A program made the position numbers and the translations under genes. Positions 35,789-52,554 of a stretch of 64,000 bases of DNA are shown piece after piece. Location of the stretch: contig JAPPNV010000307.1 in the NCBI GenBank assembly GCA_028818565.1, forward strand, positions 16,374 to 80,373, written 5' to 3'. Within the stretch, counting starts at the first letter, position 1. Each line of letters opens with the position of its first letter. This DNA is from Rhodospirillales bacterium (lineage in GTDB: Bacteria; Pseudomonadota; Alphaproteobacteria; UBA828). The notes below the pieces were generated by a model. That model had not been told where the DNA came from. It did not search any database and saw nothing but the letters and a program-made list of their open reading frames with translations.

Positions 35789-35789
35789 C

Positions 35790-37583: not shown

Positions 37584-38455
37584 GCGTTGCGATCCGGCAA
37601 GCCGAAGAGCCCTTGCGGGCGGATCATCAGAATCGCCAGGAGCACCAGGAAGGGCACCAGATCGCCGAGCTTGGAGCCGACGTAGAAGACCGTGAGGTTG
37701 TACAGAATGCCGAGGATGAGGCCGGCGACGATGGAGCCCGCGATGCTGCCCATCCCGCCGAAGATGATGATGACCAGCGCCATCAGCAGCGGCTGGAAGC
37801 CCATGTCCGGCCGCACGTTGAAAAGCGCGCCGAGCATGGCCCCGGCGGCGCCGCCGAGCGCGCCGCCGAGGAAGAACACGATTGCCGCCACCCGGCGCTT
37901 CTTGATGCCCATCAGCGCGGCGGTTTCCTCCCCCTGCGCGGTGGCGCGCATGGTGCGCCCGAGATGGGTGCGGTAGACGACGAAATAGAGCGATGCGAAC
38001 AGGACAAGAGTGATGGCGATGGTGACCAGCCGCGCTCCGTCGATACGGATTTCCCCGGCCGTCAGCGCCCAGTCCTCACCCGGCATGGCGATCGGCCGCG
38101 CCTCGAAGTCTCCCCAGATACGGAGCGCCGTGGTGCCGAGAACCATGTAGAGGCCGAGCGAGGCCAGAAGCTGGTCGGTGAGCGGGCGGCGCTGGAGGAA
38201 GCGGAAGACGGCGTTCTCCAGCACGATGCTGAGCAGCCCCATGACGATCATGGCGGCGAAGAAGCCGACGAAGAAATGTGTGCCGAGCTGCGTCGCGACC
38301 ACGTAGGCCACGAATCCGCCAAGCATGATGAGCTGCCCGTGGGCGAGGTTGATGACCCTGTAGACGCCGAAGATGAGGGCGAGCCCCGCGGCCGCCACGG
38401 CAAGGTTCATGCCGTACGAGGCGCCGTAAATCAGTTGTTGGGCGAACGCGGTCAC
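37580..38455 (-). CDS. branched-chain-amino-acid-type ABC transporter permease (LivH-like)
   Basis: MTAFAQQLIYGASYGMNLAVAAAGLALIFG... is a LivH-type N-terminus. Confidence 0.8.
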   Translation of the reverse strand: MTAFAQQLIYGASYGMNLAVAAAGLALIFGVYRVINLAHGQLIMLGGFVAYVVATQLGTHFFVGFFAAMIVMGLLSIVLENAVFRFLQRRPLTDQLLASLGLYMVLGTTALRIWGDFEARPIAMPGEDWALTAGEIRIDGARLVTIAITLVLFASLYFVVYRTHLGRTMRATAQGEETAALMGIKKRRVAAIVFFLGGALGGAAGAMLGALFNVRPDMGFQPLLMALVIIIFGGMGSIAGSIVAGLILGILYNLTVFYVGSKLGDLVPFLVLLAILMIRPQGLFGLPDRNA

Positions 38456-38552
38456 GAGATCACGCCCTTGCCGGCGGGGGACAGAATATGGACGTCAGAC
38501 AAACCGAGCCGCGAAGCGGTCCAGCCGGCGCGACCGCCCGGCGATTGAGGGC

Positions 38553-38595
38553 AAAAAAAGAGGCGGCGCACACCCTCTCGCGGGCAGGCGCCGCC
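38553..38595 (-). terminator. rho-independent terminator/attenuator between the SBP gene and the permease genes
   Basis: On the minus strand the sequence reads GGCGGCGC-ctgcccgcgagagggtgt-GCGCCGCC followed by TCTTTTTTT. That is an 8-bp GC stem plus a 7-U tract, about 50 nt after the SBP stop. Confidence 0.6.
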
Positions 38596-38647
38596 CCGGC
38601 GTCTTCTCAACCTGCGGAATCCGGCCTGGACCGTCCCCGCTACAGGG

Positions 38648-40027
38648 CTACTTCGGCAGCTTGTCGCCGTACACGTACGGGCCGTAGAAGAGCTCGTCCC
38701 GATAGCTGATGCCGGTATAGAAGACCTTCTCGTCCGCCACGCCGATGATGTACTCGGTCGCGAAGAGCTGGCCGGTCTTCTCGCCGGTATCGGGCCGGGT
38801 GAAGAACTCGTTTGTCGGCCCGCGCAGGCCGTTGATCTTCAGGTTGCGCCAGGCTTCCACGATCTTGTCGTTGTCGGTGTGGTCGCCCGAGGCCTGCACG
38901 CCGTAGAGGAACCAGATGGCGGCGTCGTAGGCGCCGCGATCGAAGGGGCTGGAGTTCCCGACCTCGGTGTCGCCGTACTTCGCGTTGTAGATGGGCACGT
39001 ACTTCTCGACGCGTGCGAGGGTCGCCTCGTCCTGCGCCGGGTTGTGCTCCTGCCAGCCCCAGACGTAGCCGGACGACATGTTGATGCCCTGGTCCTTGGC
39101 CACGTCGACGAAGATCTGCAGCATCAGCACGTCGTTGCCGAGCAGGATGATCTCGCCGGTCTCGTAGTTGAGGCCCTGCTTCTTCATCTCGTTCATGATC
39201 GCCAGCATGTCGGGGAAGATGTAGGCGTCCATGAGCACGATGTCGGGGTCCTGCTCGGCGAGCTTGGCGACGTGGGGCGCGAAGTCGGTGGTGCCGAAGG
39301 GATAGAGCACCGCCCAGTCGTGCTGGTACTCGTACCGGCCGCCGCCCTTCTCCACCGCTTCCTGCCAGCCGATGGAGCCGTGCACGGTGTAAAGCTCGTT
39401 GCGGCCGATGAAGCCGAGCTTCTTGCGCCCGTCGAAGAGGGCGGGGTCGATGCCGTGCTCCGCCAGCCTCTCGGGCGTTTCGTGGATGAACTCGCCCATG
39501 CCGTGCTTCTCGATCACGCCGGTGTCGGTGATGTCGTGGCCATACTTGCGGCCCACGGTCATCGCCGGGCTCGAGCAGATCGCGCAGATGCTGATGATGC
39601 CCTGCGGATCGAGGATCGAGGCGGCGGACAGCAACGCCGAATTCATCCGGGGGCCCCAGATCGCGCGGGCTTCATCCTGCTCGACCAGGCGGATGACGGC
39701 GTCGATCGACTTCTTGTCTTCCGAGACGTCGTCATAGGCCGTCCATTCGATGGGGATGACCTTGTCGCCGATCTTGAGCCCACCGCCTTCGCAGGGCTGC
39801 GGCGGTACGGCCTCGACGATGCAATCGCCCTTCATGAACTGCTCGACGGCGAGCCTCACGGCCGCTTCCTCGAAGAGGCCCAGGAACGAGGCCGGGCCCG
39901 ACAGCGTGAAGACGCCGCCGAACTTGAAGGTGTCTTCCGCCTTGGCCAGTTGCGGGCCGGCCACAAGCCCCGCACAGAGCGCCGCACCCAGCAGCCCTGC
40001 TCGAATTACTCCAAAGGATGATGCCAT
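38648..40027 (-). CDS. ABC transporter periplasmic substrate-binding protein (family 4 / Leu-Ile-Val-binding-protein type)
   Basis: The signal peptide is MASSFGVIRAGLLGAALCAGLVAGPQLAKA. It is a 459-aa type-I periplasmic binding fold, first gene of the operon. Confidence 0.8.
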   Translation of the reverse strand: MASSFGVIRAGLLGAALCAGLVAGPQLAKAEDTFKFGGVFTLSGPASFLGLFEEAAVRLAVEQFMKGDCIVEAVPPQPCEGGGLKIGDKVIPIEWTAYDDVSEDKKSIDAVIRLVEQDEARAIWGPRMNSALLSAASILDPQGIISICAICSSPAMTVGRKYGHDITDTGVIEKHGMGEFIHETPERLAEHGIDPALFDGRKKLGFIGRNELYTVHGSIGWQEAVEKGGGRYEYQHDWAVLYPFGTTDFAPHVAKLAEQDPDIVLMDAYIFPDMLAIMNEMKKQGLNYETGEIILLGNDVLMLQIFVDVAKDQGINMSSGYVWGWQEHNPAQDEATLARVEKYVPIYNAKYGDTEVGNSSPFDRGAYDAAIWFLYGVQASGDHTDNDKIVEAWRNLKINGLRGPTNEFFTRPDTGEKTGQLFATEYIIGVADEKVFYTGISYRDELFYGPYVYGDKLPK

Positions 40028-40127: not shown

Positions 40128-40916
40128 TCACGAGCCGAACGCCTCGGTCAGGCGACCGCGCCACCCGTGATTGGTCATGTCCAGCTGGATCGGCGTGACC
40201 GAAATCGCGTTCTCGTGGATCGCATGGAGATCGGTTCCGGGGTGTTTGCCACCGTCCTTGTAGCTGATCTCCACCCAGAAGTAGGGCACGTGGCGCGTGT
40301 CGATGCGCCCGTCGATGGTGAAGGAACCCGGCGGCCGCTGCCCCTGGGCGGTGATGCGGACGCCGCTCACCGATTCCGGCAGCGCATCCGGGAAGTTGAC
40401 GTTGACCAGCGTGCCCGAGGGCCAGTCCGGCAGGCGCATGAGGGTCTCGATCACGTCCGGTGCGAAGGCTTCCGCCGTGGCCCAGAGCGCCTCGCCGCCC
40501 ATGGTGAACACCTGGCTGAGCGCGATCGAGCGGATGCCGAGCAGGGTTCCCTCCATCGCTGCGGCGATGGTGCCGGAATAGGTCATGTCCTCCGCGAGGT
40601 TCGCGCCGCGATTGATGCCGGAGAGGAGGACCGTAGGCGGGCTCTCGGTCATCAGCTCGTGGATCGCCATCAGCGCGCAGTCGGTGGGCGTGCCGTCCAC
40701 CGCGTAGCGCCTCTCGCCCATCTGGCGCAGGCGGATCGGCGTATGCATCGAGATCGAATGGCCGGCACCGCTCCGCTCGTGATCCGGCGCGACGACCCAG
40801 ACGTCGTCTGACAGGCTCCGCGCGATCGCCTCGAGAATCTTCAGCCCCCTGGCGTGGATGCCGTCGTCATTGGTGACCAGGATGCGGTGGTGGGAGAGAT
40901 CGCTCTCCGCTGGCAT
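40128..40916 (-). CDS. surE: 5'/3'-nucleotidase SurE
   Basis: Internal ATG with AAAGGA SD gives MPAESDLSHHRILVTNDDGIHARGL..., the SurE signature. The upstream part of the track ORF is noise. Confidence 0.85.
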   Translation of the reverse strand: MPAESDLSHHRILVTNDDGIHARGLKILEAIARSLSDDVWVVAPDHERSGAGHSISMHTPIRLRQMGERRYAVDGTPTDCALMAIHELMTESPPTVLLSGINRGANLAEDMTYSGTIAAAMEGTLLGIRSIALSQVFTMGGEALWATAEAFAPDVIETLMRLPDWPSGTLVNVNFPDALPESVSGVRITAQGQRPPGSFTIDGRIDTRHVPYFWVEISYKDGGKHPGTDLHAIHENAISVTPIQLDMTNHGWRGRLTEAFGS

Positions 40917-41103
40917 GGCGGGGATCCTTTCGGGCGCGCTCGGCGGAGGCGGCAGTCTCTTCGCCGTGCCAGCCGAGCGCAAGGATGCCTCCAGGCGCCG
41001 CCGGATTGCGATGGCTGGCCTTGCGGTGTGACGGCATTGACAGCCCAAAGGCCGATCCGCATGTTGGCGCCTCCGTTCCGGCGAGCCTGCCCTGGGGGAG
41101 AGT

Positions 41104-41856
41104 GTGGCGAAGCTCTACGTGGACTCGGACAAGTACGGCGATCAGGCCCACTCGCCCACCGTCGAGGCGTTCCATAGCGCGATCAAGGACCTCGTCCGGC
41201 GCCGCCTCGACGAGAGCGGGGTCGACTGGAACAGCTTCGTCTTCGACAAGTCCTACGATCTGATTACCGCGGCCGATTTCGAGGAGATCGAGAGGAAACT
41301 CCTCGACGCCGGGCACCGCTACGACTTCTCGGCCGTGATTTCGGTGAACGAACGGCCCGAGGCCTACAAGCCCGCCGAAGGCATCTTGGGCGACGACCCC
41401 GACTGGACCATGGAGCACCCCGACGCGCCCTCAGGCGACGCAGACGCGGAGGGCCGGGCGCTCTGCGGCGTCGGCGACAACGTGATGCGCGTCTCCGAAA
41501 ACACCGTGGGCACCGCGCACTACGTCCGCTCCAGCAGCCAGGTCATGCGCTACCTCGGCGATGGCGTGCCGCCCGGGACCATCGCCATCATCGACGATTC
41601 CGGCGGGACCCTGACGGCGCCGATCCTGGAGCGGTTCGCCGGAATTATCTGCATGGGCGGCACCGTACGCTCCCATCTCGGCATCCTCTCGCGGGAGTAC
41701 GGCATTCCCTGCTTCATGAACGCCAAGATCACCGGGATCAGGGAAGGCGAGCGGCTGGAGATGGAGACCGCCGCGGCGGCGAAGACGGCGGAGGCCTACC
41801 AGAAGGGCGAGGAAATGACCGCCAACATCTGGAAGCTGGTCCAGGAGGCTCCGTGA
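41104..41856 (+). CDS. protein with a C-terminal PEP-utilising-enzyme mobile (phosphohistidine) domain
   Basis: GTG start with GGGGGAGAG SD. The C-terminal approximately 90 aa, GTIAIIDDSGGTLTAPILERFAGIICMGGTVRSHLGILSREYGIPCFMN, fits the swivelling phosphohistidine domain of PEP synthase/PPDK (GG-T-SH-AI-ARE-GIP). The N-terminal approximately 140 aa is unassigned. Confidence 0.6.
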   Translation: MAKLYVDSDKYGDQAHSPTVEAFHSAIKDLVRRRLDESGVDWNSFVFDKSYDLITAADFEEIERKLLDAGHRYDFSAVISVNERPEAYKPAEGILGDDPDWTMEHPDAPSGDADAEGRALCGVGDNVMRVSENTVGTAHYVRSSSQVMRYLGDGVPPGTIAIIDDSGGTLTAPILERFAGIICMGGTVRSHLGILSREYGIPCFMNAKITGIREGERLEMETAAAAKTAEAYQKGEEMTANIWKLVQEAP

Positions 41857-43409
41857 TGGTCGGCGCGCCGCGACTTTCATACGCCCAGCTGCTGGAGACC
41901 AACAACCTCCTTCAGACCTTCACCGACGAGACCTACTGGCTCTGCGTCACGCGGACGGTGCAGGAGTCGAAGCTCTTTCCTGTGCCGCCCTACATGCTGC
42001 TCTCGTACCTCAACGCCTTCTACCGCTATCCCTCGCTCTTGCGGAAGGTGGAGAGCGTGATGACGGCGGAAGAGATCGGCGACCGCGCCCGCGAGGGGCG
42101 CCCGCCCGGCAAAAGCGCCATGGGCTGGGGGATGCCGGGCTTTTACCTGCTCGGCCGCGAGTGGCTCATCAACATGGGGCTGCTGCGGCCACAGGACGCC
42201 GCCGAAGACGTCGTCTACCTGATGGATTTCTGGAAGCGCCTGCAGCTCTCCTGGCACAGGAACGACGGGCACATCACGAACAAGGAATTCGGCCACCGCT
42301 GCCAGATCCTGCCCGAACGCAGGCTCCAGGTCTTCGAGTCCGACGCCTACGGCTGCGAGACCGGCGATCCGCTGCACAGCGCGGCGACCCAGTTCATGGC
42401 GTCTGCGGCCCAATACGGCTTCCTGGTGAGCTGCGAGAGCCGCATCAGCCTGCTCAACACCGGGCCCTACAAGCTTGCCGACGGCAACGAGATGATCGTC
42501 CGCGAATTCATGGACCTCGGCGAGGGCGACTTCCCCTGGCTCGACGACGTGGCTGCGGACATTCCCTACAACAACCTCACCGTCCCGATGCTGGTGAAGG
42601 ACTGCCACTTCTACCTGGTCGACGACTGGGGCAGCTTCGAATCCGAGCCCGAGTTCCGGGCAGAGAGCATCGTCGGCGTCGGCCTCTACACCTCCGACCC
42701 GCTCACCGAGGGGCACGTTCCGGTGGGGATGGAGAGCCGCGAGGCCCTGACCGAGACCTTCCGCACGCTGGACGGGCTCTTCAAGGAGGCGACGGCGCGG
42801 CTCTGGAAGCGCATCGCCGGCTGGAGCCGCGACCAGATGCTCGATGCCGGCGCGCTCACCTACTTCGGCATCTGCAAGGATCTCGCCCATGTCGCCGGCG
42901 TCTACGCCCACGAGGACTGGATGCTGATCGACGAGCGGGCCGAGCGCTTCCGCCCGCTGCTCAACGACGAGTTCAGCCGCGACTGCCTGGGCGAGCTGGT
43001 GGGGCTGCTGACGCTGCCGAGCCATCGCCTCTCGTCCTACAGCATGATGCAGCACGGCAACGGCCCGACGCGCATGTACACGCCGATCCCCTACGCGATC
43101 CTGGACGGCGAGGGTTACGTGCCCACCTGCGGCCCGGTCTACCCCGGCGCCACCACGCTCCCGGCCAAGGCCGACCGCTACCGCACCAGCCAGGGTGTGC
43201 TGACGCTGGAGGAGTACAACCTACGGGTCCGTGACTTCGCGCCGCAGTCGGATCGGTATCGTTTCCTGGACGAGACCTGGCTCAAGTACAACCACGACAC
43301 GCCGCGTGCCGACAAGATGTACCGGCACGAGCAGGAGCGGGCGCGCAAGATCCAGGATTGCGGCGCATCGCTCGGCGCTGCGGAGCTGGCGGCGCTTCCC
43401 CGCGACTAG
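41856..43409 (+). CDS. hypothetical protein (517 aa), translationally coupled to the upstream phosphohistidine-domain protein
   Basis: ATG at 41856 overlaps the upstream TGA (GTGATGG), with AGGAGG 8 nt upstream. I recognise no family (MVGAPRLSYAQLLETNNLLQTFTDETYWLCVTRTVQESKLFPVPPYMLLSYLNAFYRYPSLL...). Confidence 0.55.
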   Translation: MVGAPRLSYAQLLETNNLLQTFTDETYWLCVTRTVQESKLFPVPPYMLLSYLNAFYRYPSLLRKVESVMTAEEIGDRAREGRPPGKSAMGWGMPGFYLLGREWLINMGLLRPQDAAEDVVYLMDFWKRLQLSWHRNDGHITNKEFGHRCQILPERRLQVFESDAYGCETGDPLHSAATQFMASAAQYGFLVSCESRISLLNTGPYKLADGNEMIVREFMDLGEGDFPWLDDVAADIPYNNLTVPMLVKDCHFYLVDDWGSFESEPEFRAESIVGVGLYTSDPLTEGHVPVGMESREALTETFRTLDGLFKEATARLWKRIAGWSRDQMLDAGALTYFGICKDLAHVAGVYAHEDWMLIDERAERFRPLLNDEFSRDCLGELVGLLTLPSHRLSSYSMMQHGNGPTRMYTPIPYAILDGEGYVPTCGPVYPGATTLPAKADRYRTSQGVLTLEEYNLRVRDFAPQSDRYRFLDETWLKYNHDTPRADKMYRHEQERARKIQDCGASLGAAELAALPRD

Positions 43410-43450
43410 GGGCGCGCGCCTCTCCCCACGCGTCCGAGCAGCCTGGCCCA

Positions 43451-44947
43451 ATGCAGATCGGCGAATACATCCGGCGCGCGGGCGCCATGTTCGGCGAGGC
43501 GCCAGCGCTGACCGAGGGCGCGCGCACGCTGAGCTTCCGCGCACTCGACGAAGCGACGGACCGGCTCGGCAACGCGCTGCTGGTGGAAGGCTTCGAGCCG
43601 GGCGATCGCGTCGGCGTGCTGCTGCCCAACGGGATCGACTGCCTGATCGCCTACTACGCGCTTGCCAAGTGCGGCCTCGTGCGGGTCTCGCTCAACGTGC
43701 GCGAGACCGCGGCGGACCATCGCTACAAGTTGGGCGATAGCGGCGCGCGTGGACTCATCCACGACGGCTCTGGCAGTGCCGACGGCATCGATGTGGAACT
43801 CGTCTACGACCTCGACGCTCTGCGCCGGCTCATCGACGACGGCCCGCCCGGCGCCTGCCGCGTGGACCGCGACCTTGAGGCGCCCTTTCGCCTGGGCTTC
43901 ACCGGCGGGACCACCGGCGCGCCCAAGGCGGTCACGCTCACCACGCTGGGCGAGACTGCGGAGCTCTCGGCCTTTCTCATGGACCTGGTGCCGGACCTCG
44001 CGCCGGGCGACCGCTTTCTCCACGCCGCCCCCATCGCACACGCATCGGGCGCCTTCTTCCTGCCCTCGCTGGTGCGGGGCGTGCACCAATGGATCATGCC
44101 GCACTTCGACGCGGCCGGCTTCATCGCCATGGCCGCGCAGGGGCAGGCGACCCATACCTTTCTCGTGCCGACCATGCTGGCCATGATCATGGAGGAGCCC
44201 GCGCTGGAGACGGCGACGCTCCGCTTCAAGCGCATCTGCTACGGCGCTTCGCCCATCGCGCCGAGCCTCTTGGAGCGCGCCATGGACCGCTTCGGGCCGG
44301 TCTTCGCCCAGACCTACGGCCAGGCTGAATCGCCGATGGTTATCACCTGTCTCGGGCCGGAGGATCACGACCGCGTGGGCTCGTGCGGGCGGCCCTATAC
44401 CACCGTGGACGTGGCGATCTTCAACGATGACGACATGCCCGTGCCCACCGGCGAGCGGGGCGAGATCGTCTGCCGCGGCACCCAGCTCATGGCCCGTTAC
44501 TGGAACCGCCCGGAGGAGACGGCCAAGGCCTTCCGCAACGGCTGGCTCCATACCGGCGACATCGGCCGCATGGACGAGGACGGCTTCTTCTACATCCTCG
44601 ACCGAAAGAACGACATGCTCATCAGCGGTGGCTACAACGTCTATCCCCGGGAGATCGAAGACGTGCTGCTTGCGTACGAGGGCGTTGTCGAGGCCGCGGT
44701 CGTGGGCTTGCCCGACGAGAAGTGGGGCGACCGCGTTCATGCGGTGGTCGCCGGGCGGCCCGGCCTGGACCCGGAGGCCGTGCGGCTGTTCTGCCGCGAG
44801 CGGCTAGCGGGCTACAAGTGCCCGAAGAGCGTCGAGATCTGGGACACGCTGCCCAAGAGCGGGGCCGGCAAGCTCCTGCGCCGCGCCGTGCGCGACCGCG
44901 TTATCGCGGCGGCAGCCACCGAGGCGCCCGTGCAGCCGGGCAACTGA
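43451..44947 (+). CDS. AMP-dependent synthetase/ligase (acyl-CoA synthetase family)
   Basis: AMP-binding motifs FTGGTTGAPKAV, YGQAESP, GWLHTGDIG and the lysine-containing C-terminal KSGAGKLLRR are present. Confidence 0.85.
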   Translation: MQIGEYIRRAGAMFGEAPALTEGARTLSFRALDEATDRLGNALLVEGFEPGDRVGVLLPNGIDCLIAYYALAKCGLVRVSLNVRETAADHRYKLGDSGARGLIHDGSGSADGIDVELVYDLDALRRLIDDGPPGACRVDRDLEAPFRLGFTGGTTGAPKAVTLTTLGETAELSAFLMDLVPDLAPGDRFLHAAPIAHASGAFFLPSLVRGVHQWIMPHFDAAGFIAMAAQGQATHTFLVPTMLAMIMEEPALETATLRFKRICYGASPIAPSLLERAMDRFGPVFAQTYGQAESPMVITCLGPEDHDRVGSCGRPYTTVDVAIFNDDDMPVPTGERGEIVCRGTQLMARYWNRPEETAKAFRNGWLHTGDIGRMDEDGFFYILDRKNDMLISGGYNVYPREIEDVLLAYEGVVEAAVVGLPDEKWGDRVHAVVAGRPGLDPEAVRLFCRERLAGYKCPKSVEIWDTLPKSGAGKLLRRAVRDRVIAAAATEAPVQPGN

Positions 44948-44950
44948 GCC

Positions 44951-45553
44951 ATGAGCGACACCTACCTCGTCCTCCACGGGCTTGCGATCAAGAAGCACGC
45001 GGACGCTGGCGCGGTTGCCGCTGCGCTCGGACTCGCCGAGGACGAGGTGCGCGCCGTGCTGGACGATGCGGTGGCGAAAGGCCGCGCAGCGCGCGCAGGC
45101 GAGGCATATTCGCTGACTCCCGTCGCCCGTGTGGCGCTCGACGGCGCCTATTCCCGGCTCTTCGCCGCGCAACGGGCCGATGAGGCCTTCGCCGCCGCCC
45201 ACGAGCGCTTCGAGGCGATCAACATAGAGCTAAAGCAGCTGATGACCGCGTGGCAGACCATCGAGATCGATGGCGAGAACGTGCTGAACGACCACACCAA
45301 CAAGGACTACGACGACAGGCTGATCGACCGCCTCGGCGCCCTGCACGAGCGGGCGGAGACGACCCTCCAGCAACTGAGCGCCGGGCTGCCACGCCTCGCA
45401 ATTTATTCGGAAAAGCTCGAAGCGGCGCTGGAGAAGGCCGAGGACGGCGCCATCGAGTGGGTCAGCGGCGCGCGGATCGAGTCCTACCACACGGTCTGGT
45501 TCGAGCTTCACGAGGACCTGCTGCGGATCCTCGGCCGCACGCGGCAGGAATAG
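44951..45553 (+). CDS. hypothetical protein (200 aa; possible winged-helix-like N-terminal region)
   Basis: It starts 4 nt after the ligase stop. Its stop TAG overlaps the next start region (TAGGCATG). No confident family assignment. Confidence 0.5.
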   Translation: MSDTYLVLHGLAIKKHADAGAVAAALGLAEDEVRAVLDDAVAKGRAARAGEAYSLTPVARVALDGAYSRLFAAQRADEAFAAAHERFEAINIELKQLMTAWQTIEIDGENVLNDHTNKDYDDRLIDRLGALHERAETTLQQLSAGLPRLAIYSEKLEAALEKAEDGAIEWVSGARIESYHTVWFELHEDLLRILGRTRQE

Positions 45554-45555
45554 GC

Positions 45556-47316
45556 ATGGGTGCCGTCGGCCGCTGGGTCCTTTCCCTTGACGGCGCTGCG
45601 TTGCCCGACGGTGCGCTTGTCGGGGGCAAGGCGTGGGGCATCGCCTTCATGCGCCACGCGGGCCTCCCGGTGCCGCCCGCCTTCGTGGTGACGACAGAGG
45701 CCTGCCGCGCCTACCTCGCCGAGGGCCAGTTGCCGGATGGCCTCACCGACGAGCTTCACGCCGGCATCGCCATGCTGGAGGCGGAGACCGGGCGCCGCTT
45801 CGGCGTGCCCGAGCGCCCGTTGCTGCTGGCGGTCCGCTCCGGCGCCGCCATCAGCATGCCGGGCATGCTGGATACGGTGCTCAATCTCGGGATCGACGAA
45901 GAGATTGAGGCGGCTCTGGCGCGAGAAAGCGGCGACGTGGCCTTCGCCCGCGACACCCACCGGCGCTTCCACGAGATGTACGCGCGCATCGTGCTCAAGG
46001 CGGGGATCGACGGGCTTCCGCCCGAGGGATCCGTCGAGGAATGGCGGGCGGCCGTGGCGGAGGCGGGGGCCGCAGCCAGGGTGCCGGAGGCGCCGGTCGA
46101 TCAGCTTCTCGGCGCGGTTCGTGCCGTCTTCGACTCATGGAACGGGCGGCGCGCGAAGCGTTATCGCCGGCATCACGGGCTCGCGGATGACGCGGGCACC
46201 GCCGTCACGGTGCAGGCCATGGTGTTTGGCAACCTCGGCGCGAACAGCGGGACGGGCGTGCTTTTCAGCCGCAATCCGCTCACCGGTGCGCCTGTGCCTT
46301 ACGGCGAGTATCTTGCCTGCGCCCAGGGGGAGGACGTGGTCTCCGGCCAGCGGACGCCGCAGGGACTCGATGCGCTGTCGTCGTCCCTGCCGGAGGCGCA
46401 CGCCGCCCTGATCGACGCCGCGGGCCGGCTGGAGGCGCTGAACCGGGATGTGCAGGACATCGAGTTCTCGGTACAAAATGGCGCGCTCTACCTGTTGCAG
46501 ACCCGCACCGCCGCCCGGGCTCCCGCAGCGGCCATGCGCATCGCCGTCGATCTGGTGAACGAGGGAACCATCTCCTCCGACGAAGCGCTCGCCCGCGTCA
46601 GCGCGGCCCAGGTCCGGACGCTGCTCATGCCCCGCCTCGATGAGGGCGCCGGAGAGGACGCCGCCCTGCTCGCGGAAGGCGAGGGCGCGAGTCCTGGTGT
46701 CGGCATCGGCAAAGTCGTGCTGGATGCCGACGCGGCCGAGGCGAGCGGCGCGGCCGGCGAGGACGTGGTGCTGGTGCGCCCGACCACCAGCCCGGAGGAC
46801 GTGCACGGCATGGTCGCCGCCCGCGCGGTCGTGACGGCGACCGGGGGTGCGACCTCGCACGCCGCCGTGGTAAGCCGCTCCCTCGGCGTTCCCTGCGTCG
46901 TCGGCTGCGGCGAAGGCGTGGGCGCGGCGCTTGCGGGCAGGGAGGTGACGGTGGATGGCAAGGCCGGGCAGGTGTTCGATGGTGTCCTGCCGGTGAGCAT
47001 TCCCGCGGAGACGGACGATCCGTACCTGCGCCGGATTGCGGCATGGGCCCGCGCGGCCGCGCCCATCGCGGTCTATCGCGCCGAAGATTCGGCGCCCAAC
47101 GGCGCGGTCGATCTCGACCGCTTGCCCGGCGGTGAGGAACCGGAGCGAATGCCCGCGCTGCTCGCGGGGGCTCCCGGCGCAAAGGGCGGCGCGCTCGCCA
47201 GCGATGCGGGTGTCGCGGCCGCCGTTGCCGCCGGCCTCGACTTCATCGTTGTTCGCCACGCTCTGCCGGCCCTGCTCGCGGCCTGTGCCGCCGCGCGCGC
47301 CGAGGCTGCCACATGA
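45556..47316 (+). CDS. pyruvate-phosphate-dikinase-like protein: PPDK_N nucleotide-binding domain plus central phosphohistidine domain, lacking the C-terminal PEP/pyruvate TIM barrel
   Basis: MGAVGRWVLSLDGAALPDGALVGGKAWGIAFMRHAGLPVPPAFVVTTEACRAYLAEG...LLLAVRSGAAISMPGMLDTVLNLG...RRFHEMYARIV...VFDSWNGRRAKRYRRHHGLADDAGTAVTVQAMVFGNLGANSGTGVLFSRNPLTG...YGEYLACAQGEDVVSGQRTP is collinear with the PPDK N-terminal domain. ATGGATSHAAVVSRSLGVPCVVGC is the catalytic His swivel domain. The protein ends about 80 aa later, so there is no room for the roughly 300-aa PEP-utilizers C domain. Confidence 0.8.
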   Translation: MGAVGRWVLSLDGAALPDGALVGGKAWGIAFMRHAGLPVPPAFVVTTEACRAYLAEGQLPDGLTDELHAGIAMLEAETGRRFGVPERPLLLAVRSGAAISMPGMLDTVLNLGIDEEIEAALARESGDVAFARDTHRRFHEMYARIVLKAGIDGLPPEGSVEEWRAAVAEAGAAARVPEAPVDQLLGAVRAVFDSWNGRRAKRYRRHHGLADDAGTAVTVQAMVFGNLGANSGTGVLFSRNPLTGAPVPYGEYLACAQGEDVVSGQRTPQGLDALSSSLPEAHAALIDAAGRLEALNRDVQDIEFSVQNGALYLLQTRTAARAPAAAMRIAVDLVNEGTISSDEALARVSAAQVRTLLMPRLDEGAGEDAALLAEGEGASPGVGIGKVVLDADAAEASGAAGEDVVLVRPTTSPEDVHGMVAARAVVTATGGATSHAAVVSRSLGVPCVVGCGEGVGAALAGREVTVDGKAGQVFDGVLPVSIPAETDDPYLRRIAAWARAAAPIAVYRAEDSAPNGAVDLDRLPGGEEPERMPALLAGAPGAKGGALASDAGVAAAVAAGLDFIVVRHALPALLAACAAARAEAAT

Positions 47317-47792
47317 CCATCGACCGCAAGGAGGTCGAGGCGCTGATCCGCCTCTTCGAGCGGTCGGACTGGCACGAGCTCCGGCTCGAGACCGACGGGC
47401 TGAAGCTGGTGCTCTCGAAGGACGCGGATGCGGCAGCGCTCGGGTCGGAAGCCGAGGCTGCCGCAGCCTCGGCAGAGAAGGCTCCCCTGGAAACCACACG
47501 CGCCCAGGACGACGTGGCGCCGGTGGACGGGCTGGTCCCGATCACGGCGCCCAACCTCGGCACCTTCTATCGCGCGCCGAAGCCGGGGGTCGCGCCCTAC
47601 GTGGAGGTCGGCCAGCAGGTCGGCGAGGCAACCGAGGTATGCCTGATCGAGGTCATGAAGCTGTTCACGCCGGTTCGGGCCGGGATCAACGGCCGGATCG
47701 CCAAGGCCTGCGTCGAGGACGGCGAGATGGTGGAGTTCGGCGCGCCGCTCTTTCTGGTCGAGCCGGAGGCCGAAGCGGCCGAGAAGGCGTGA
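47313..47792 (+). CDS. biotin carboxyl carrier protein (biotinyl/lipoyl domain protein)
   Basis: ATGA overlap with the upstream stop. The C-terminal biotinyl domain carries the CLIEVMKLFTPV lysine motif (AMKM-type) within a GxxVxxGxxL hammerhead context. Confidence 0.8.
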   Translation: MTIDRKEVEALIRLFERSDWHELRLETDGLKLVLSKDADAAALGSEAEAAAASAEKAPLETTRAQDDVAPVDGLVPITAPNLGTFYRAPKPGVAPYVEVGQQVGEATEVCLIEVMKLFTPVRAGINGRIAKACVEDGEMVEFGAPLFLVEPEAEAAEKA

Positions 47793-49150
47793 TGGCCCTC
47801 TCGCGCGTCTTCGTCGCCAACCGGGGGGAGATCGCCGTGCGCATCGTCCGCGCCTGCCGCTCCCTCGGGCTCGAGAGCGTCGTCGGGGTCTCCGACGCCG
47901 ACCGCGAGGGCCTGGCGGCGGAGCTTGCGGACCGCGCCGTGGTGCTGGGGCCGGCGCCGGCGCGCGAGAGCTACCTCAACGCCAATCTCGTGGTTCATGC
48001 GGCGAAGGCGACCGCATGCGACGCGCTGCATCCGGGCTACGGCTTCCTCTCCGAATCTTCGGCCCTCGCCGGGCTGTGCGAGCGGGAGGAGATCGTGTTC
48101 GTGGGGCCGCGGGCCGAGACCATCGAGCGGCTCGGCGACAAGCTCACCGCCCGCGCCATCGCAGCCGAGGCGGACGTGCCCATTGTCCCTGGTTCCGGCG
48201 AGATCCGCGCGGCAGCGGAGGCACGCACGTTTGCCGCGCGGGTCGGCTATCCGGTGCTGATGAAGGCCAGCGCCGGCGGCGGCGGGCGCGGCATGTTCGT
48301 TGCGCGAACGGACGCGGACATCGACGACGGTTTCGAGCGCGCATCGGCGGAAGCCGAAGCCGCCTTCGGCGACGGGGCGCTCTTCGTCGAGCGCTTCGTC
48401 GAGGACGCGCGTCACGTCGAGGTCCAGATCATGGGGGACGGTGCAGGCGCGGTCGTCCACTTCGGCGAGCGGGATTGCTCGGTGCAGCGGCGCTTCCAGA
48501 AGGTGGTGGAGGAAGCGCCGGCGGCGGCGCTGTCGGCCGAGGCGCGCGCGCAGATCCACGACGCCGCCTGCCGTCTCGCCCGGCACCTCGACTATCAGAG
48601 CGCCGGCACGGTCGAGTTCCTCTACGACGTGGCACGCGGCGAGGCCTATTTCATCGAGGCCAACGTGCGTATTCAGGTTGAGCATCCGGTGACGGAGGAA
48701 GTCACCGGCATCGACCTGATCGAGGAGCAGTTGCGCATCGCTGGAGGTGGCGGGCTCAGCGTCGCGCAGGGGGACATCGCCCTTGCCGGCCACGCCATCG
48801 AATGCCGGATCAACGCCGAGGCGCCGGAGCGGGACTTCGCGCCGTCGCCCGGTTTGATCGACGCCTGGCGCGCACCGGAGGGCCAGGGCATCCGCATCGA
48901 CAGCCACTGCCGCGCGGGCGCCTTCGTGTCTCCCTTCTACGACAGCATGATCGCCAAGCTGATCGTGCGCGCCGGCGACCGCACGCAAGCGGTGGAGCGC
49001 ATGAGCGGCGCGCTGGACGCGTTTCGGATCGGTGGCATCGACACCAACCTCGCGTTCCAGGCGCGCCTCGTGCGGCACCCTGACTTCGCAGCCAACAGTC
49101 TCAACACGCGCTGGCTGGAGGATGTCTTCATGCCCTCGCTCATGCACTAG
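47792..49150 (+). CDS. biotin carboxylase (ATP-grasp; AccC-like subunit)
   Basis: TGATG overlap with the BCCP stop. MALSRVFVANRGEIAVRIVRACRSLG..., YPVLMKASAGGGGRGM and EANVRIQVEHPVTE are present. It runs the full length of AccC (452 aa). Confidence 0.85.
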   Translation: MALSRVFVANRGEIAVRIVRACRSLGLESVVGVSDADREGLAAELADRAVVLGPAPARESYLNANLVVHAAKATACDALHPGYGFLSESSALAGLCEREEIVFVGPRAETIERLGDKLTARAIAAEADVPIVPGSGEIRAAAEARTFAARVGYPVLMKASAGGGGRGMFVARTDADIDDGFERASAEAEAAFGDGALFVERFVEDARHVEVQIMGDGAGAVVHFGERDCSVQRRFQKVVEEAPAAALSAEARAQIHDAACRLARHLDYQSAGTVEFLYDVARGEAYFIEANVRIQVEHPVTEEVTGIDLIEEQLRIAGGGGLSVAQGDIALAGHAIECRINAEAPERDFAPSPGLIDAWRAPEGQGIRIDSHCRAGAFVSPFYDSMIAKLIVRAGDRTQAVERMSGALDAFRIGGIDTNLAFQARLVRHPDFAANSLNTRWLEDVFMPSLMH

Positions 49151-49166
49151 GCCGAGGAGAGCGACG

Positions 49167-50627
49167 ATGGCGCATATCGAATTCCTCGACGAGACCATGC
49201 GGGACGGGCAGCAGAGCCTTTGGGGCATGCGCATGCAGGCCGGCATGGCGCTCCCCATTGCGCCGGTCATCGATCGGGTGGGCTACCGCGTGGTGGACCT
49301 CACGGGCTCCAGCCTCTTCGAGGTGCTGATCCGCCACTGCCGCGAGAACCCGTGGGAAGGGCTCGACCTCCTGGTCGACGCCATGCCGAACAGCACGATC
49401 CGCGGCGGCATGCGCAGCAACGCGAGCGTTACCTTCGGCGTCACACCCGATGCGCTGATGGACGTCTGGATGCGGCAGCTTTGCGTCCACGGCTGCCGCA
49501 GCTTCTGGATCTACGACGTTCTCTTCAATATCGACAAGACGCACCGCCTCGCCAAGGTGGCCAAGGAGTTCGGCGCGGAGGTGGCGGGCGCCATCATGTT
49601 CACGCTGAGCCCGGTTCACACCGACGACTATTACGCCGACAAGGCGGACAGGCTCTCCGCCTCGCCGGATATCGACACGCTCCTGCTTTACGACACGGGC
49701 GGCGTGCTGGAGCCCGACCGCATGCGCACGCTGGTTCCGGCGATCATGGCGAAGGCGCGCGGCAAGCCCATCGAGTTCCACTCGAATAACCTCCTCGGCG
49801 CCTCCGGTCGCGCCTACGTCGAGGCGATCAAGCTCGGCATCCGCATCCTGCACACCGCCTGCGGACCCATGGCGAACGGCCCCTCGGTGCCCTCGGTCGA
49901 GGTGATGACGCGGAACGTCGAGCACCTGGGCCATACCCACAACATCGACCGCTCGCTGTTGCCGCAGATCGCGGAGCACTTCGAGAGCGTGGCCGCGGCG
50001 GCCGGGTTCCCCATCGGCGTGCCGCAGGAATACGACCTCTTCTCCGTGCGGCATCAGGTGCCGGGCGGGATGATGGGCACGCTCAAGGCGCAGCTCGTCC
50101 AGCACGAGATGGCGGACCGGCTCGACGACGTGCTGGAGGAAACCGGCCACGTGCGCCGCGAGCTCGGCTACCCCGGCATGGCGACACCGTTCTCCCAACT
50201 GGTCGGCACGCTGGCTGTGCTCAACATCGTCACCGGCGAGCGCTATTCCGTTATCCCGGACGAGGTGATCCAATACGCCGGTGGGCACTACGGCGAGCCG
50301 GTCGCGCCCATCGATGAGGACGTGCTGGACCGGATTATGGCCGCACCTCGCGCCAGGGAGGTGCTGGCCGAGCCGCCGGAGCAGCCTGCGCTGGCCGAGC
50401 TGCGCAAGCGCCACGGCACCGATGACGACGACGAGCTGATCCTGCGTGCCCTGGTCCCGGCGGCGGACCTCGACAGGATGCGCGCCGCGGGCCCGGTGAA
50501 GCGGGACTTCCCGATTCTCTCCACGCCGGAGCTCGAGCACGTGCGCAAGCTGATGGCGCTCTCCACCTCGAAGTACGTCGAGGTGGAGACCGCGAACCTC
50601 TCGGTCTCGTTGCGCCGCGCCGGCTAG
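49167..50627 (+). CDS. carboxyltransferase subunit of a biotin-dependent oxo-acid carboxylase (HMGL-like TIM barrel plus PYC/OadA-type domain; no biotinyl domain)
   Basis: AGGAGAGCGACG SD. FLDETMRDGQQSLWGMRM...IDRVGYRVVDLTGSS...LIRHCRENPWEGL...FWIYDVLFNIDK...MFTLSPVHTDDYY...LLLYDTGGVL...IEFHSNNLLGASGRAYVEAIKLG is collinear with the pyruvate carboxylase B-subunit / oxaloacetate decarboxylase alpha carboxyltransferase domain. Confidence 0.8.
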   Translation: MAHIEFLDETMRDGQQSLWGMRMQAGMALPIAPVIDRVGYRVVDLTGSSLFEVLIRHCRENPWEGLDLLVDAMPNSTIRGGMRSNASVTFGVTPDALMDVWMRQLCVHGCRSFWIYDVLFNIDKTHRLAKVAKEFGAEVAGAIMFTLSPVHTDDYYADKADRLSASPDIDTLLLYDTGGVLEPDRMRTLVPAIMAKARGKPIEFHSNNLLGASGRAYVEAIKLGIRILHTACGPMANGPSVPSVEVMTRNVEHLGHTHNIDRSLLPQIAEHFESVAAAAGFPIGVPQEYDLFSVRHQVPGGMMGTLKAQLVQHEMADRLDDVLEETGHVRRELGYPGMATPFSQLVGTLAVLNIVTGERYSVIPDEVIQYAGGHYGEPVAPIDEDVLDRIMAAPRAREVLAEPPEQPALAELRKRHGTDDDDELILRALVPAADLDRMRAAGPVKRDFPILSTPELEHVRKLMALSTSKYVEVETANLSVSLRRAG

Positions 50628-50634
50628 GATCGGC

Positions 50635-51804
50635 ATGCGCCGCGCCTGCATCGTCGATGTCGTCCGCACGCCCTTCGCCAGGGGGCGGGAGGGCGGTGCG
50701 CTGAGCGCGGTTCACCCGGTCGACCTGCTCGCGAAGACGCTCGAGGGCCTGGTCGCGCGCACCGGCATCGACCCCGGCGCGGTCGACGACGTGATCGCGG
50801 GCTGCGTCATCCAGGTGGGCGAGCAGGCCGCCAACATCGGCCGCCAAGCCTGGCTCGCGGCGGGCTTTCCCGAGACCGTCCCCGCCGTCACCATCGATCG
50901 CAAGTGCGGCTCGGCGCAGCAGGCGATGGACTTCGCGGCCCAGGGCGTGATGGCGGGGGCCTACGACCTCGCCATCGCCTGCGGGGTCGAGATGATGAGC
51001 CGCGTGCCCATGGGCAGCAACCGGCGCGGTAAGGACCATCTGGGTCCGATGTTGCGCCGGCGCTATGCGGAAGGCCTGGTGCACCAGGGCATCTCCGCCG
51101 AGCTGATCGCCGCACGCTGGGGCCTCTCGCGCGAAGCACTCGACGCCTATGCGCTGCGCTCGCACCGGCGCGCCGCGGCTGCCGAGGACAAGGGCCTCTT
51201 TGCGCGCGATATCGTACCCATCGACAGCGCTGCCAGGGACGAAGGCATCCGCCGCAACACGAGCGCCGAGAGGCTGGCCGCGCTGGAGCCGGCGTTCGTG
51301 GACGCCGGTACGGCCGAGCGCTTTCCCGAGATCGGCTGGGTGGTGACGGCGGGGAATTCAAGCCAGGTTTCCGATGGCGCATCGGCGCTGCTGATCGCTT
51401 CGGAAGAGGCGGCGCGGCGGTTGAAACTCGCCCCGCGCGCCGCCATCACCCACTTTGCGGTCTGCGGCGACGACCCCGTGCTCATGCTGACCGGAATCAT
51501 CCCGGCGACACGGAAACTGCTGGCGCGGAGCGGCCGGACCTTCGACGACATCGACTGCTTTGAGGTCAACGAAGCCTTCGCGTCCGTGGTGCTGGCGTGG
51601 GCGGAGACGCTGGGTGCGGACCTCGACCGGGTCAACGTCAACGGCGGCGCCATCGCCTTCGGCCACCCCGTCGGCGCGTCGGGCGGACGGCTCACGGCCA
51701 ACCTGATCGGCAGCCTGGAGGAGAACGGCGGGCGCCTCGGCCTTCAGACCATGTGCGAGAGCGGCGGCATGGCCAACGCAACGCTGATCGAGCGGCTGGG
51801 TTGA
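50635..51804 (+). CDS. thiolase (acetyl-CoA C-acyltransferase family)
   Basis: RKCGSAQQA holds the active-site Cys. NVNGGAIAFGHPVGASG and the CESGGMANA C-terminal motifs are present. Confidence 0.85.
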   Translation: MRRACIVDVVRTPFARGREGGALSAVHPVDLLAKTLEGLVARTGIDPGAVDDVIAGCVIQVGEQAANIGRQAWLAAGFPETVPAVTIDRKCGSAQQAMDFAAQGVMAGAYDLAIACGVEMMSRVPMGSNRRGKDHLGPMLRRRYAEGLVHQGISAELIAARWGLSREALDAYALRSHRRAAAAEDKGLFARDIVPIDSAARDEGIRRNTSAERLAALEPAFVDAGTAERFPEIGWVVTAGNSSQVSDGASALLIASEEAARRLKLAPRAAITHFAVCGDDPVLMLTGIIPATRKLLARSGRTFDDIDCFEVNEAFASVVLAWAETLGADLDRVNVNGGAIAFGHPVGASGGRLTANLIGSLEENGGRLGLQTMCESGGMANATLIERLG

Positions 51805-51813: not shown

Positions 51814-52554
51814 CTACGCCGCCAGGTAGTGGCCGCCGTTGACGAAGATGGTCTGCCCCTGGACGAACTCGGCTTCGGGGCTCGCGAGGAAACGGATCAC
51901 GCTGGTGTAGTCCTCGTCCCGCACGCCGCGCCCGCTCGGGTTGGTCTCGGCGGCGTGCTTCACGATCTCGCTTGCCTGGTCGCCGAACAGCGCCCGCACG
52001 GCATCCGTGTCCACCACGCCGGGGGCGACGCTGTTGATCCGCACGCCACGCGGCGCGAGCTCGCTCGCGAGATAGCGCACCAGAGATTCCGCCAGCGCCT
52101 TGGCGACGCCGATGGCGGCGTAGTTGGGGACCACGGTGCGCCCGCCCCGGCTGGTGAGGAAGAACACCGTGCTGCCGCGCCGGAGCAGCGGATCGGCCGC
52201 CTGCACGAGGTAGAGCAGCGCCGTGCCGTTGAGATTGACCGCGGCGGCGAAGTCGTCCGCATCGCAGTCCAGCGCGGGCCTCGGAATGGCGCGGACGGCG
52301 CAGTGCACGAGCTGGTCGAGCCTGTCGACTCGCTCCGCCACCTCGGCGAGCACAGCGCGCGCGCCTTCCGGCGTGCCGACATCCTGCTTGATCACGTGGC
52401 AGCGTGCGCCCCTGGCCTCGACCAAGGAATTTGCCTCGCGCGCGGCCGCGTCGTCGCCCGCATAATTGAGAAACACGTCGACGCCGGATTCGGCAAAGGC
52501 AAGCGCGATGGCGCGTCCGATGCCCTTGGTGCCGCCCGTTATCAAGATCGACAT
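51814..52554 (-). CDS. SDR-family oxidoreductase
   Basis: MSILITGGTKGIGRAIA holds the TGxxxGxG motif. The YAAIGVAKAL catalytic Y-x3-K and the PGVVDTD motif are present. Confidence 0.8.
   Translation of the reverse strand: MSILITGGTKGIGRAIALAFAESGVDVFLNYAGDDAAAREANSLVEARGARCHVIKQDVGTPEGARAVLAEVAERVDRLDQLVHCAVRAIPRPALDCDADDFAAAVNLNGTALLYLVQAADPLLRRGSTVFFLTSRGGRTVVPNYAAIGVAKALAESLVRYLASELAPRGVRINSVAPGVVDTDAVRALFGDQASEIVKHAAETNPSGRGVRDEDYTSVIRFLASPEAEFVQGQTIFVNGGHYLAA

Follow-up and report, generated by a model that had tools for sequence, protein, structure and literature searches.

A PPDK-derived dikinase module beside a biotin-dependent carboxylase: a candidate variant of phosphorylation-primed ketone carboxylation in Rhodospirillales

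In Rhodococcus rhodochrous GD02, the kinase HpeHI, encoded in the hpeHICBADEF cluster, phosphorylates 4-hydroxyacetophenone or acetovanillone; HpeCBA carboxylates the phosphorylated ketone only, HpeD dephosphorylates, and HpeE and HpeF complete the pathway (PMC9618137). The homologous AcvABCDEF system of Sphingobium SYK-6, which has a PycB-like carboxyltransferase (CT), likewise carboxylates only the phosphorylated ketone, by means of AcvCDE, and uses AcvF for dephosphorylation (bioRxiv 10.1101/2022.04.28.489975). In the Hpe, Acv, and Xcc systems and in the MarK-type clusters, phosphate is placed on a remote phenolic hydroxyl as a handle and is removed later (PMC9618137, bioRxiv 10.1101/2022.04.28.489975, PMC12167813, PMC12624787). 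The ketone is a hydroxy-aryl methyl ketone, and after the phosphatase come a CoA ligase and either a hydrolase or a thiolase. MarK is an unrelated single-protein kinase that forms ADP and can replace HpeHI in the same pathway (PMC12624787), and HpeH, PpsA, and rifampin phosphotransferase use a rifampin-binding substrate domain (PMC12167813). Here we analyze a nine-gene operon (g1 to g9, positions 41104-51804) in a 64,000-nucleotide stretch of contig JAPPNV010000307.1 from a Rhodospirillales bacterium (GCA_028818565.1), hereafter called the window, in which a truncated pyruvate, phosphate dikinase (PPDK) is encoded beside a biotin-dependent carboxylase.

Like the Hpe, Acv, and Xcc systems, the last of which is from Aromatoleum aromaticum EbN1, the window operon appears to combine an ATP-dependent phosphorylation by a dikinase with a swiveling histidine domain, a three-subunit biotin carboxylase composed of biotin carboxyl carrier protein (BCCP), biotin carboxylase (BC), and a PycB-like CT without the pyruvate-binding arginine, and a phosphatase followed by CoA ligation and carbon-carbon cleavage to acetyl-CoA. 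We estimate a probability of about 0.55 that the operon would carry out a phosphorylation-primed, biotin-dependent ketone carboxylation and then dephosphorylation, CoA ligation, and thiolysis, with a kinase non-homologous to those described and a divergent CT. The evidence for this reading consists of the conserved synteny, gene fusions, two invariant histidine motifs, the PPDK front half, the kinship of the CT, the loss of its pyruvate-binding arginine, and the linked phosphatases. A sequence-only reading of the same DNA had arrived at the same overall logic, which our results support, and had considered the combination undescribed. The latter claim does not hold, since an analogue has been described in the Hpe/Acv/Xcc systems (2022) and the MarK-type clusters, whose CT is 41% identical to that of the window and falls in its sister group (70% bootstrap). 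As a biotin-dependent pathway in which ketones are carboxylated only after phosphorylation is already known, the system does not found a new category; it is a clearly distinct variant, set apart by a putative, undescribed multi-subunit dikinase, a subunit (g2) without a solved relative, and a CT with a remodeled active site. Full-text literature searches returned no description of a cluster joining a truncated PPDK to a biotin carboxylase and no mention of the locus tags of its Gordonia counterpart.

Acetone and acetophenone carboxylases resemble the proposed system in the ATP-dependent carboxylation of methyl ketones to beta-keto acids, and acetone carboxylase has been proposed to act via a phosphoenol intermediate. 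These enzymes are, however, biotin-independent and of the hydantoinase/oxoprolinase type, whereas the window encodes BCCP and BC, and no hydantoinase/oxoprolinase domain was detected in the nine genes with Pfam or NCBIfam. The phenylphosphate synthase/carboxylase system differs in its UbiD-type carboxylase, in contrast to the biotin-dependent one of the window, and in its PpsAB kinase, which the window kinase subunits do not resemble; no UbiD-family gene is present in the cluster or its flanks. The absence of homologous subunits ruled out both identities.

Operon organization and conservation

All nine plus-strand open reading frames (ORFs), and every junction listed in the sequence-only reading, were found in the window sequence. 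Successive genes meet at a GTGATG junction (g1/g2, 41853-41858), at TGAgccATG (g3/g4, 44945-44953), at TAGGCATG (g4/g5, 45551-45558), at ATGA (g5/g6, 47313-47316), and at TGATG (g6/g7, 47790-47794), with gaps of 16 nt between g7 and g8 (49150/49167) and 7 nt between g8 and g9 (50627/50635). The most likely start of g3, judged from the sequence, is the ATG at 43451, 41 nt past the g2 stop. A consensus scan of the operon plus strand revealed no internal promoter-like or terminator-like site, and an Rfam scan of the window returned zero RNA elements. The GC content of the window is high, about 0.65-0.72, and its closest relatives are metagenome-assembled genomes (MAGs) of uncultured Rhodospirillales/Alphaproteobacteria, with 96% identity in g2.

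The occurrence of each gene was counted by tblastn of the window proteins on 84 fetched loci and clustering of the flanking ORFs, which together represent 47 dereplicated locus groups. The g1, g2, and CT (g8) genes were each present in 37 groups, followed by the PPDK-like gene g5 (33), the ligase gene g3 (32), the BC gene g7 (31), the BCCP gene g6 (28), g4 (27), and the thiolase gene g9 and an adjacent short-chain dehydrogenase/reductase (SDR) gene (26 each). The order g1-g2-(g3)-g4-g5-g6-g7-g8-g9 is nearly always kept, with the ligase present in most but not all loci, and it was seen in about 40 dereplicated loci. The conservation of gene order across genomes, proposed earlier as a check, was borne out: g2, PPDK, and CT occur together in at least 27 dereplicated locus groups, which belong to Alpha-, Beta-, and Gammaproteobacteria and Actinobacteria, four classes or phyla in all. 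This conservation is far above chance, and the retention of the order across so many taxa indicates that the cluster is a real, horizontally mobile functional unit.

In a scan of one genome per species, relatives were found in 192 of 185,579 species. The carriers include Rhodobacteraceae (Chachezhania, Pseudooceanicola), Roseiarcus, Sphingopyxis, Marinibaculum, Novosphingobium resinovorum (plasmid pSA1), MAGs of Sterolibacterium and Hydrogenophaga, and many gammaproteobacterial MAGs, and a slightly different form of the cluster is found on Rhodococcus plasmids and in Gordonia polyisoprenivorans VH2 and Pseudonocardia. They are marine, freshwater, sponge-associated, and soil bacteria, some of them cultured, so that the system is directly testable.

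A putative four-protein dikinase with two phosphohistidine domains

The kinase part of the operon comprises g1, g2, g4, and g5. The 250-aa g1 product (41104..41856, plus strand) combines an unassigned N-terminal part with a phosphohistidine swivel domain at the C-terminus (PF00391, PEP-utilizers, 29.9 bits against a cut-off of 23.1), the motif of which, GG[TS][VT]RSHLGIL.REY, shows no variation among 72 homologues; in the loci compared, g1 always lies immediately 5' of g2. The g5 product (45556..47316, plus strand) is a truncated PPDK with an ATP-grasp and a His swivel domain, which matches PPDK_N and PEP-utilizers in Pfam and scores 704 bits, above the cut-off, on the NCBIfam model NF004531 (PRK05878; 534 positions, 'pyruvate, phosphate dikinase'). 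Its best-scoring stretch against the Clostridium symbiosum PPDK (E 3e-115) stops at residue 534 of 874, and its motif GGxTSHAAVVxR, which contains the TSH of PPDK, is essentially unchanged in 62 homologues. No match to PF02896 (PEP-utilizers_C), the phosphoenolpyruvate (PEP)/pyruvate TIM barrel, was found in g5 or in any other gene of the cluster. The g5 protein is a genuine PPDK front half that differs from PPDK in having no TIM barrel, in being accompanied by g1, g2, and g4, and in standing apart from the PEP-pyruvate node. Since both motifs are invariant or essentially so, the catalytic histidines of g1 and g5 are presumably functional.

The signature protein of the cluster, the 518-aa g2 product (41853..43409, plus strand), has no match in Pfam, NCBIfam, or the Protein Data Bank (PDB) by sequence and profile searches, and the 200-aa g4 product (44951..45553, plus strand) matched no Pfam or NCBIfam family, in keeping with the earlier view that neither belongs to a recognized family. 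Structure prediction followed by a fold search, which had been proposed for g2, gave a confident AlphaFold model (pLDDT 85, pTM 0.87) that is of neither the TIM-barrel nor the rifampin-binding domain type and for which Foldseek found no solved structure with E < 1. The g2 protein is presumed to be the substrate-binding and phosphotransfer subunit. For g4, the model combines a MarR-like winged helix with a four-helix bundle (pLDDT 93), and the protein is a probable structural subunit or scaffold of the dikinase. We also considered g4 as a repressor of the operon; despite the MarR-like winged helix this is unlikely, as some genomes encode g2 and g4 as one fused protein and g4 always stands among enzyme genes.

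The g2-g4 fusions are single proteins of ~720 aa, and in actinobacterial paralogues a swivel domain precedes a g2-like domain in the same chain; these fusions tie the parts of the dikinase together. Relatives of g2 form ~1000 clusters at 90% identity, are 63-96% identical to g2, and are all unnamed and without Pfam domains. A profile search over 1.84 billion representatives returned only 517 clusters, which points to a small, tight family. Actinobacteria also hold stand-alone swivel, g2-like, and g4-like proteins beside the swivel/g2-like fusions. In these organisms a second, paralogous four-gene set lies beside the main cluster and encodes a swivel protein of ~125 aa, a g2-like protein of ~397 aa, a fusion of swivel and g2-like domains of ~545-577 aa, and an unassigned protein of ~380 aa. 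It was located in Rhodococcus oxybenzonivorans pRB98 (loci L094 12812-17182 and L086 58-2855), Gordonia polyisoprenivorans VH2 (L095 8434-12917), and Pseudonocardia endophytica (L096 8425-12801).

The kinase of the window differs in composition from those of Hpe and Acv, in which HpeI or AcvB is an ATP-grasp protein alone and HpeH or AcvA joins a rifampin-binding-type domain to a C-terminal swivel histidine. In comparison with an Acv/Hpe-type cluster (L091), g5 aligns to the HpeI-like protein with 33 bits only, g2 to the HpeH-like protein with an E value of 0.29, and g1 shares only a 52-aa swivel motif. Past generic ATP-grasp and swivel motifs, the kinase proteins of the window are not homologous to HpeHI. 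The window has four kinase proteins with two His domains, whereas Hpe and Acv have two proteins. The combination of ATP-grasp and swivel histidine with a separate substrate module is also seen in rifampin phosphotransferase, PpsAB, and CreHI (PMC12167813). In contrast to these, the window substrate module is structurally unmatched, and the ATP-grasp subunit retains a swivel domain of its own. MarK is a single, ADP-forming protein, whereas the PPDK-type His-relay kinase of the window would presumably form AMP. The kinase part is without a described counterpart, a candidate four-protein dikinase derived from PPDK.

The ancestry of g5 raises the possibility, to which we give tentative credence, that the dikinase transfers phosphate to the enol oxygen of a methyl ketone, one that is non-activated and probably aliphatic or isoprenoid, and that the CT carboxylates the resulting enol phosphate, with inorganic phosphate (Pi) released at carboxylation or, in a variant, with a phospho-enol beta-keto acid hydrolyzed later by a phosphatase. 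The ancestor in question, true PPDK, is an enol-phosphorylating enzyme, and a dikinase reaction, with AMP formed from ATP, suits an enol or aryl phosphate of high energy. However, we know of no biotin enzyme that carboxylates an enol phosphate, and the nearest characterized CTs use ketones bearing a remote phosphate (PMC9618137). It is similarly possible, although we would not presume it, that the module represents a new class of dikinase in which a two-histidine relay converts an unactivated ketone into its enol phosphate, for instance a methyl ketone of aliphatic or isoprenoid type like phytone or a product of polyisoprene cleavage. If so, the CT would provide the first known case of an enol phosphate being carboxylated by a biotin enzyme, and the system would form a third, mechanistically new ketone carboxylase family beside the hydantoinase-type and Hpe-type enzymes.

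The carboxylase and its active site

The carboxylase is encoded by g6 to g8. The g6 product (47313..47792, plus strand) is a BCCP (Biotin_lipoyl; TIGR00531, 108 bits) with the biotinylation motif EVMKL, g7 (47792..49150, plus strand) encodes a BC (Biotin_carb_N, CPSase_L_D2, Biotin_carb_C; NF006367, 608 bits), and g8 (49167..50627, plus strand) encodes a PycB/OadA-like CT (PYC_OADA, 3e-27). Profile searches against Pfam and NCBIfam agreed with the domains that had been assigned from the sequence alone, apart from the HMGL-like domain of g8, the score of which (22.8) is under the Pfam cut-off of 29. The g8 protein is ~31% identical to OadA and PycB and falls under the NCBIfam cut-offs for both, and it is 41% identical over its full length (E 6e-123) to the CT of L091.

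In OadA numbering, g8 retains Arg16, Asp17, and Gln20 but carries three substitutions: R118W, a tryptophan for the arginine of the FR(V/I)FD motif (FWIYD in g8); K178Y, a tyrosine for the carbamylated lysine (LYD); and H209N, an asparagine for a histidine metal ligand (HSN). All three are fixed in the proteobacterial family, with two loci (L073 and L077) as exceptions that retain His209. The arginine of the FR(V/I)FD motif is the residue that binds the carboxylate of pyruvate, and its replacement by tryptophan sets g8 apart from ordinary subunits of pyruvate or 2-oxoglutarate carboxylases, an identity that the earlier reading had named as one that would count against it. It also bears on the reading of the cluster as a central-metabolism module, in which a split PPDK would act with a two-subunit-type pyruvate (or 2-oxoglutarate) carboxylase at the PEP-pyruvate-oxaloacetate node. 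Automatic annotation favors such a module by labeling g5 'pyruvate, phosphate dikinase' and some g8 relatives 'pyruvate carboxylase subunit B'. Against it stand the CT without the pyruvate-binding arginine and two metal ligands, the absence of the PEP/pyruvate barrel from the whole cluster (g2 is not a TIM barrel), the linkage to a CoA ligase and a thiolase, and the rarity of the cluster, found in only 192 of the 185,579 species genomes; we regard this reading as highly improbable. An ordinary PPDK with an ordinary pyruvate carboxylase was rejected on account of the missing barrel and the altered CT active-site residues.

In a bootstrapped neighbor-joining tree of 13 sequences, the PPDK-associated CTs and the Acv/MarK CTs each form a clade with 100% bootstrap, the two clades are sisters with 70% bootstrap, and all non-pyruvate CTs are split from OadA/PycB with 100%. 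Of the metal ligands, the window CT has lost Lys178 and His209, whereas Hpe, Acv, and MarK CTs retain both, and CTs of loci L091, L087, and L088 keep the full K/H/H set. The Rhodococcus CT has a glutamate at the position of Lys178 and Asp/Glu/His/His at the metal-site positions.

Related CTs were found by tblastn against plasmids in three further contexts. The first is that of MarK-type clusters on plasmids of bisphenol degraders, which encode a Tm-1-like (UPF0261) kinase, BCCP, BC, CT, and a haloacid dehalogenase (HAD) phosphatase and whose CT is 37-41% identical to that of the window. These clusters show that the kinase ahead of this carboxylase family is interchangeable. The second is an Acv/Hpe-type cluster of Rhizobium leguminosarum with HpeH-like and HpeI-like proteins, BCCP, BC, CT, a HAD phosphatase, and an acetoacetate-CoA ligase. 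The third comprises carboxylase clusters without a kinase. One of them, on a plasmid of Cnuibacter physcomitrellae (L090, 8926-15610), encodes CT, BCCP, BC, BioY, 3-oxoacid CoA-transferase A/B, and a thiolase; another, on a plasmid of Burkholderia sp. THE68 (L092, 3064-19338), encodes CT, BCCP, and BC, with acetoacetate decarboxylase, an acetate symporter, carbonic anhydrase, and bioAFDB as neighbors. The Cnuibacter CT retains the K/H/H metal ligands and has lost the pyruvate arginine, and the Burkholderia CT is 57% identical to it. These two clusters may encode biotin-dependent small-ketone carboxylases yielding 3-oxoacids.

The kinship of the CT with those of Acv, Hpe, and MarK, its nearest relatives, also favors the idea that the operon is an ordinary hydroxyphenylethanone pathway, for 4-hydroxyacetophenone, acetovanillone, or acetosyringone, into which a third type of kinase was swapped. 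We consider this improbable. The CT identity is only ~40% and the active-site signature differs; the ligase is FadD-type rather than AcsA-type; g2 does not resemble the phenol site of HpeH, which is of the rifampin-binding type; no aromatic-acid catabolic genes lie near the cluster; and the carriers are mainly marine, lake, or sponge-associated MAGs, not known lignin degraders.

The substitutions at the metal site are also relevant to the enol-phosphate route, for which they count: in the proteobacterial CTs, K178Y and H209N replace two ligands of the metal that stabilizes the enolate in pyruvate carboxylase and OadA, while Acv, Hpe, and MarK retain them. On the other hand, the Asp/Glu/His/His set of the Rhodococcus CT suggests that a metal site may persist there.

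Phosphatases, proposed pathway, and flanking genes

A phosphatase gene of the SurE family, overlooked in the sequence-only reading, lies divergently 5' of g1 (40128..41048, minus strand; Pfam SurE, 2.5e-58, with the domain beginning at residue 56); its true start probably lies 3' of the TTG that opens the ORF. Across Alpha-, Beta-, and Gammaproteobacteria, 17 of 42 locus groups have SurE next to the cluster; Gordonia has it too, together with a histidine phosphatase (His_Phos_1) close to the cluster. A tyrosine-phosphatase-family protein (PTP; Y_phosphatase3) is found in 7 locus groups and within the Rhodococcus operon, and of the 32 groups with 5 kb or more of sequence upstream, 16 have SurE and/or PTP beside the cluster. 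The phosphatases linked to the cluster come from three unrelated families. In Hpe and Acv, by contrast, the phosphatase HpeD/AcvF is a NagD-like HAD protein, and no HAD gene was found for the window cluster. The recurrence of non-orthologous phosphatases at the same place argues that a phosphate ester needs removal, as in Hpe. The same three families speak against the enol-phosphate route in the version in which Pi leaves during carboxylation, since they would then be needless, and the many loci without a phosphatase in view speak for it. PTP also lends some support to the hydroxyphenylethanone pathway, as the tyrosine-phosphatase family is expected to act on aryl phosphates.

The remaining steps would be carried out by g3 and g9. 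The g3 product (43451..44947, plus strand; 498 aa) is an AMP-forming acyl-CoA ligase of the FadD/feruloyl/OSB-ligase type (Pfam AMP-binding, 6e-66) with FadD8 and a feruloyl-CoA synthetase as the nearest PDB entries, and g9 (50635..51804, plus strand) encodes a degradative thiolase (Thiolase_N, Thiolase_C; TIGR01930, 436 bits). The FadD-type ligase and the true thiolase at the last step are further differences from Hpe and Acv. The thiolase is swapped for a DUF35 protein and an SCP2-type thiolase in Rhodococcus and for two family-III CoA-transferases in a JGI metagenome contig (L004). The Rhodococcus pair, which resembles the benzoylsuccinyl-CoA thiolase BbsAB, is another point in favor of a hydroxyphenylethanone substrate.

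In the pathway of phosphorylation-primed carboxylation that we favor, the start compound would have a carbonyl group and would most likely be a ketone produced by the SDR encoded next to the operon. The multi-subunit dikinase would phosphorylate it through a phosphohistidine relay: the ATP-grasp domain of g5 would pyrophosphorylate a swivel histidine, and the phosphoryl group would then reach the g2-bound substrate, probably via g1. By analogy with PPDK and HpeHI, we infer a relay from the g5 histidine to the g1 histidine and on to the substrate. The g6-g8 carboxylase would then act on the carbon adjacent to the carbonyl of the phosphorylated compound, a linked phosphatase (SurE here, PTP in some lineages) would strip the phosphate, g3 would form the beta-ketoacyl-CoA, and g9 would cleave it by thiolysis to acetyl-CoA and a shortened acyl-CoA, in this presumed order. 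As the site of phosphorylation, a remote hydroxyl appears slightly favored over the enol oxygen, given that three phosphatase families linked to the cluster fit the logic of a handle.

Several observations weigh against this model. About half of the loci, mostly from gammaproteobacterial MAGs, have no phosphatase in view. The CT is without the carbamylated lysine and one histidine ligand that the CTs of Acv, Hpe, and MarK keep, so its chemistry may differ, and its sister grouping with them has the modest bootstrap and sampling given above (70% in neighbor joining, 13 sequences). The neighboring genes are of the lipid or beta-oxidation kind rather than aromatic, with enoyl-CoA hydratase (ECH), acyl-CoA dehydrogenase (ACAD), SCP2-type thiolase, and CoA-transferases recurring across loci, and the model gives no reason for two phosphohistidine domains.

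Some of these observations count for the enol-phosphate route, to which ECH, ACAD, a FadD-like ligase, and a thiolase of the SCP2 type, which is suited to branched acyl-CoAs, would be well matched, as would the presence of the rubber degrader G. polyisoprenivorans VH2 among the carriers. The PPDK ancestry, the lost CT metal ligands, and the lipid-type neighbors therefore keep that idea alive. As a speculation, the handle and enol models could be brought into agreement if the enol phosphate outlasted carboxylation and shielded the labile beta-keto acid until the phosphatase acted.

If phosphorylation-primed carboxylation with a handle does take place, the dikinase would be the third, structurally unrelated kinase recruited for biotin-dependent ketone carboxylation of this type, and its use of two phosphohistidine swivel domains would be without precedent. 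The model would also give a role to the ~1000 g2 clusters of 'hypothetical protein' and to the truncated PPDKs that pipelines annotate as ordinary PPDK. It would indicate oxygen-independent ketone breakdown in the carriers, with Rhodococcus, Gordonia, Novosphingobium, Roseiarcus, and Rhodobacteraceae among the cultured ones. Possible uses include a catalyst for ketone carboxylation under mild conditions and a module for strains that valorize lignin or terpenoids.

The SDR gene (51814..52554, minus strand; adh_short_C2, 2e-57) is convergent with the operon, and an SDR of the same protein cluster adjoins the thiolase in 26 locus groups. It is a candidate alcohol-to-ketone dehydrogenase feeding the pathway, a role comparable to that of Hped in the p-ethylphenol pathway, which again would suit a hydroxyphenylethanone; its nearest PDB entries are generic (FabL or carbonyl reductases). 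The genes for a 3-hydroxyacyl-CoA dehydrogenase, a medium-chain alcohol dehydrogenase, and SDRs that had been noted downstream are present, as are the two upstream genes of the acetoacetate decarboxylase (ADC) family (33459-35045, minus strand; Pfam matches), which are loosely associated with the cluster (7 locus groups). Between the latter and SurE lies a branched-chain-type ATP-binding cassette (ABC) transporter (35081-40027, minus strand; Pfam matches), conserved no further than the closest lineages (4 locus groups); its binding protein has no relative in the PDB. Membership of the ADC genes and the transporter in the system is uncertain. The window has the branched-chain-amino-acid type of transporter, a Rhizobiaceae MAG locus and probably Rhodobacteraceae loci have a sugar type with a Peripla_BP_4 binding protein, and gammaproteobacterial loci have MacB/FtsX permeases. 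The transporters thus vary by lineage and point to no common substrate, and for the SDR and the ligase the nearest solved structures are generic.

Two loci have unusual surroundings. In the metagenome contig with two CoA-transferases in place of ligase and thiolase (L004, 1162-9249), g2 and g4 are fused, and the neighbors include two P450s, a methylmalonyl-CoA-mutase-like pair, an enoyl-CoA hydratase, and a luciferase-like monooxygenase, which hint at a branched or terpenoid-like substrate. In the rubber degrader G. polyisoprenivorans VH2 (L095, 13009-20208), His_Phos_1, two APH-type kinases, a luciferase-like monooxygenase, a 577-aa RPH/HpeH-like protein (Rph_4th and PEP-utilizers), SurE, and a g4-like protein make up a dense set of phosphotransfer genes.

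Further away in the window, a thiamine pyrophosphate (TPP)-dependent enzyme and a class-III aminotransferase are encoded downstream (56072-59051), and a second class-III aminotransferase (9649-10974) lies upstream beside an APH-type kinase (7733-9205); the TPP-dependent enzyme and both aminotransferases are beside the cluster only in the window's closest relatives. A protein with a CT_C_D domain (15654-16607, minus strand; KipI/PxpB-like, of the 5-oxoprolinase or allophanate-hydrolase subunit type) is apparently unrelated to the operon. The sole low-GC stretch of the window (12001-14000, GC 0.53, compared with 0.64-0.73 in the rest) contains a gene for a Sel1-repeat protein (12622-13701, minus strand) and could be an island with a eukaryote-like repeat protein. 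APA_bin_60 and RHO3_bin_58, as the nearest MAGs are called, may be host-associated, possibly sponge, bins.

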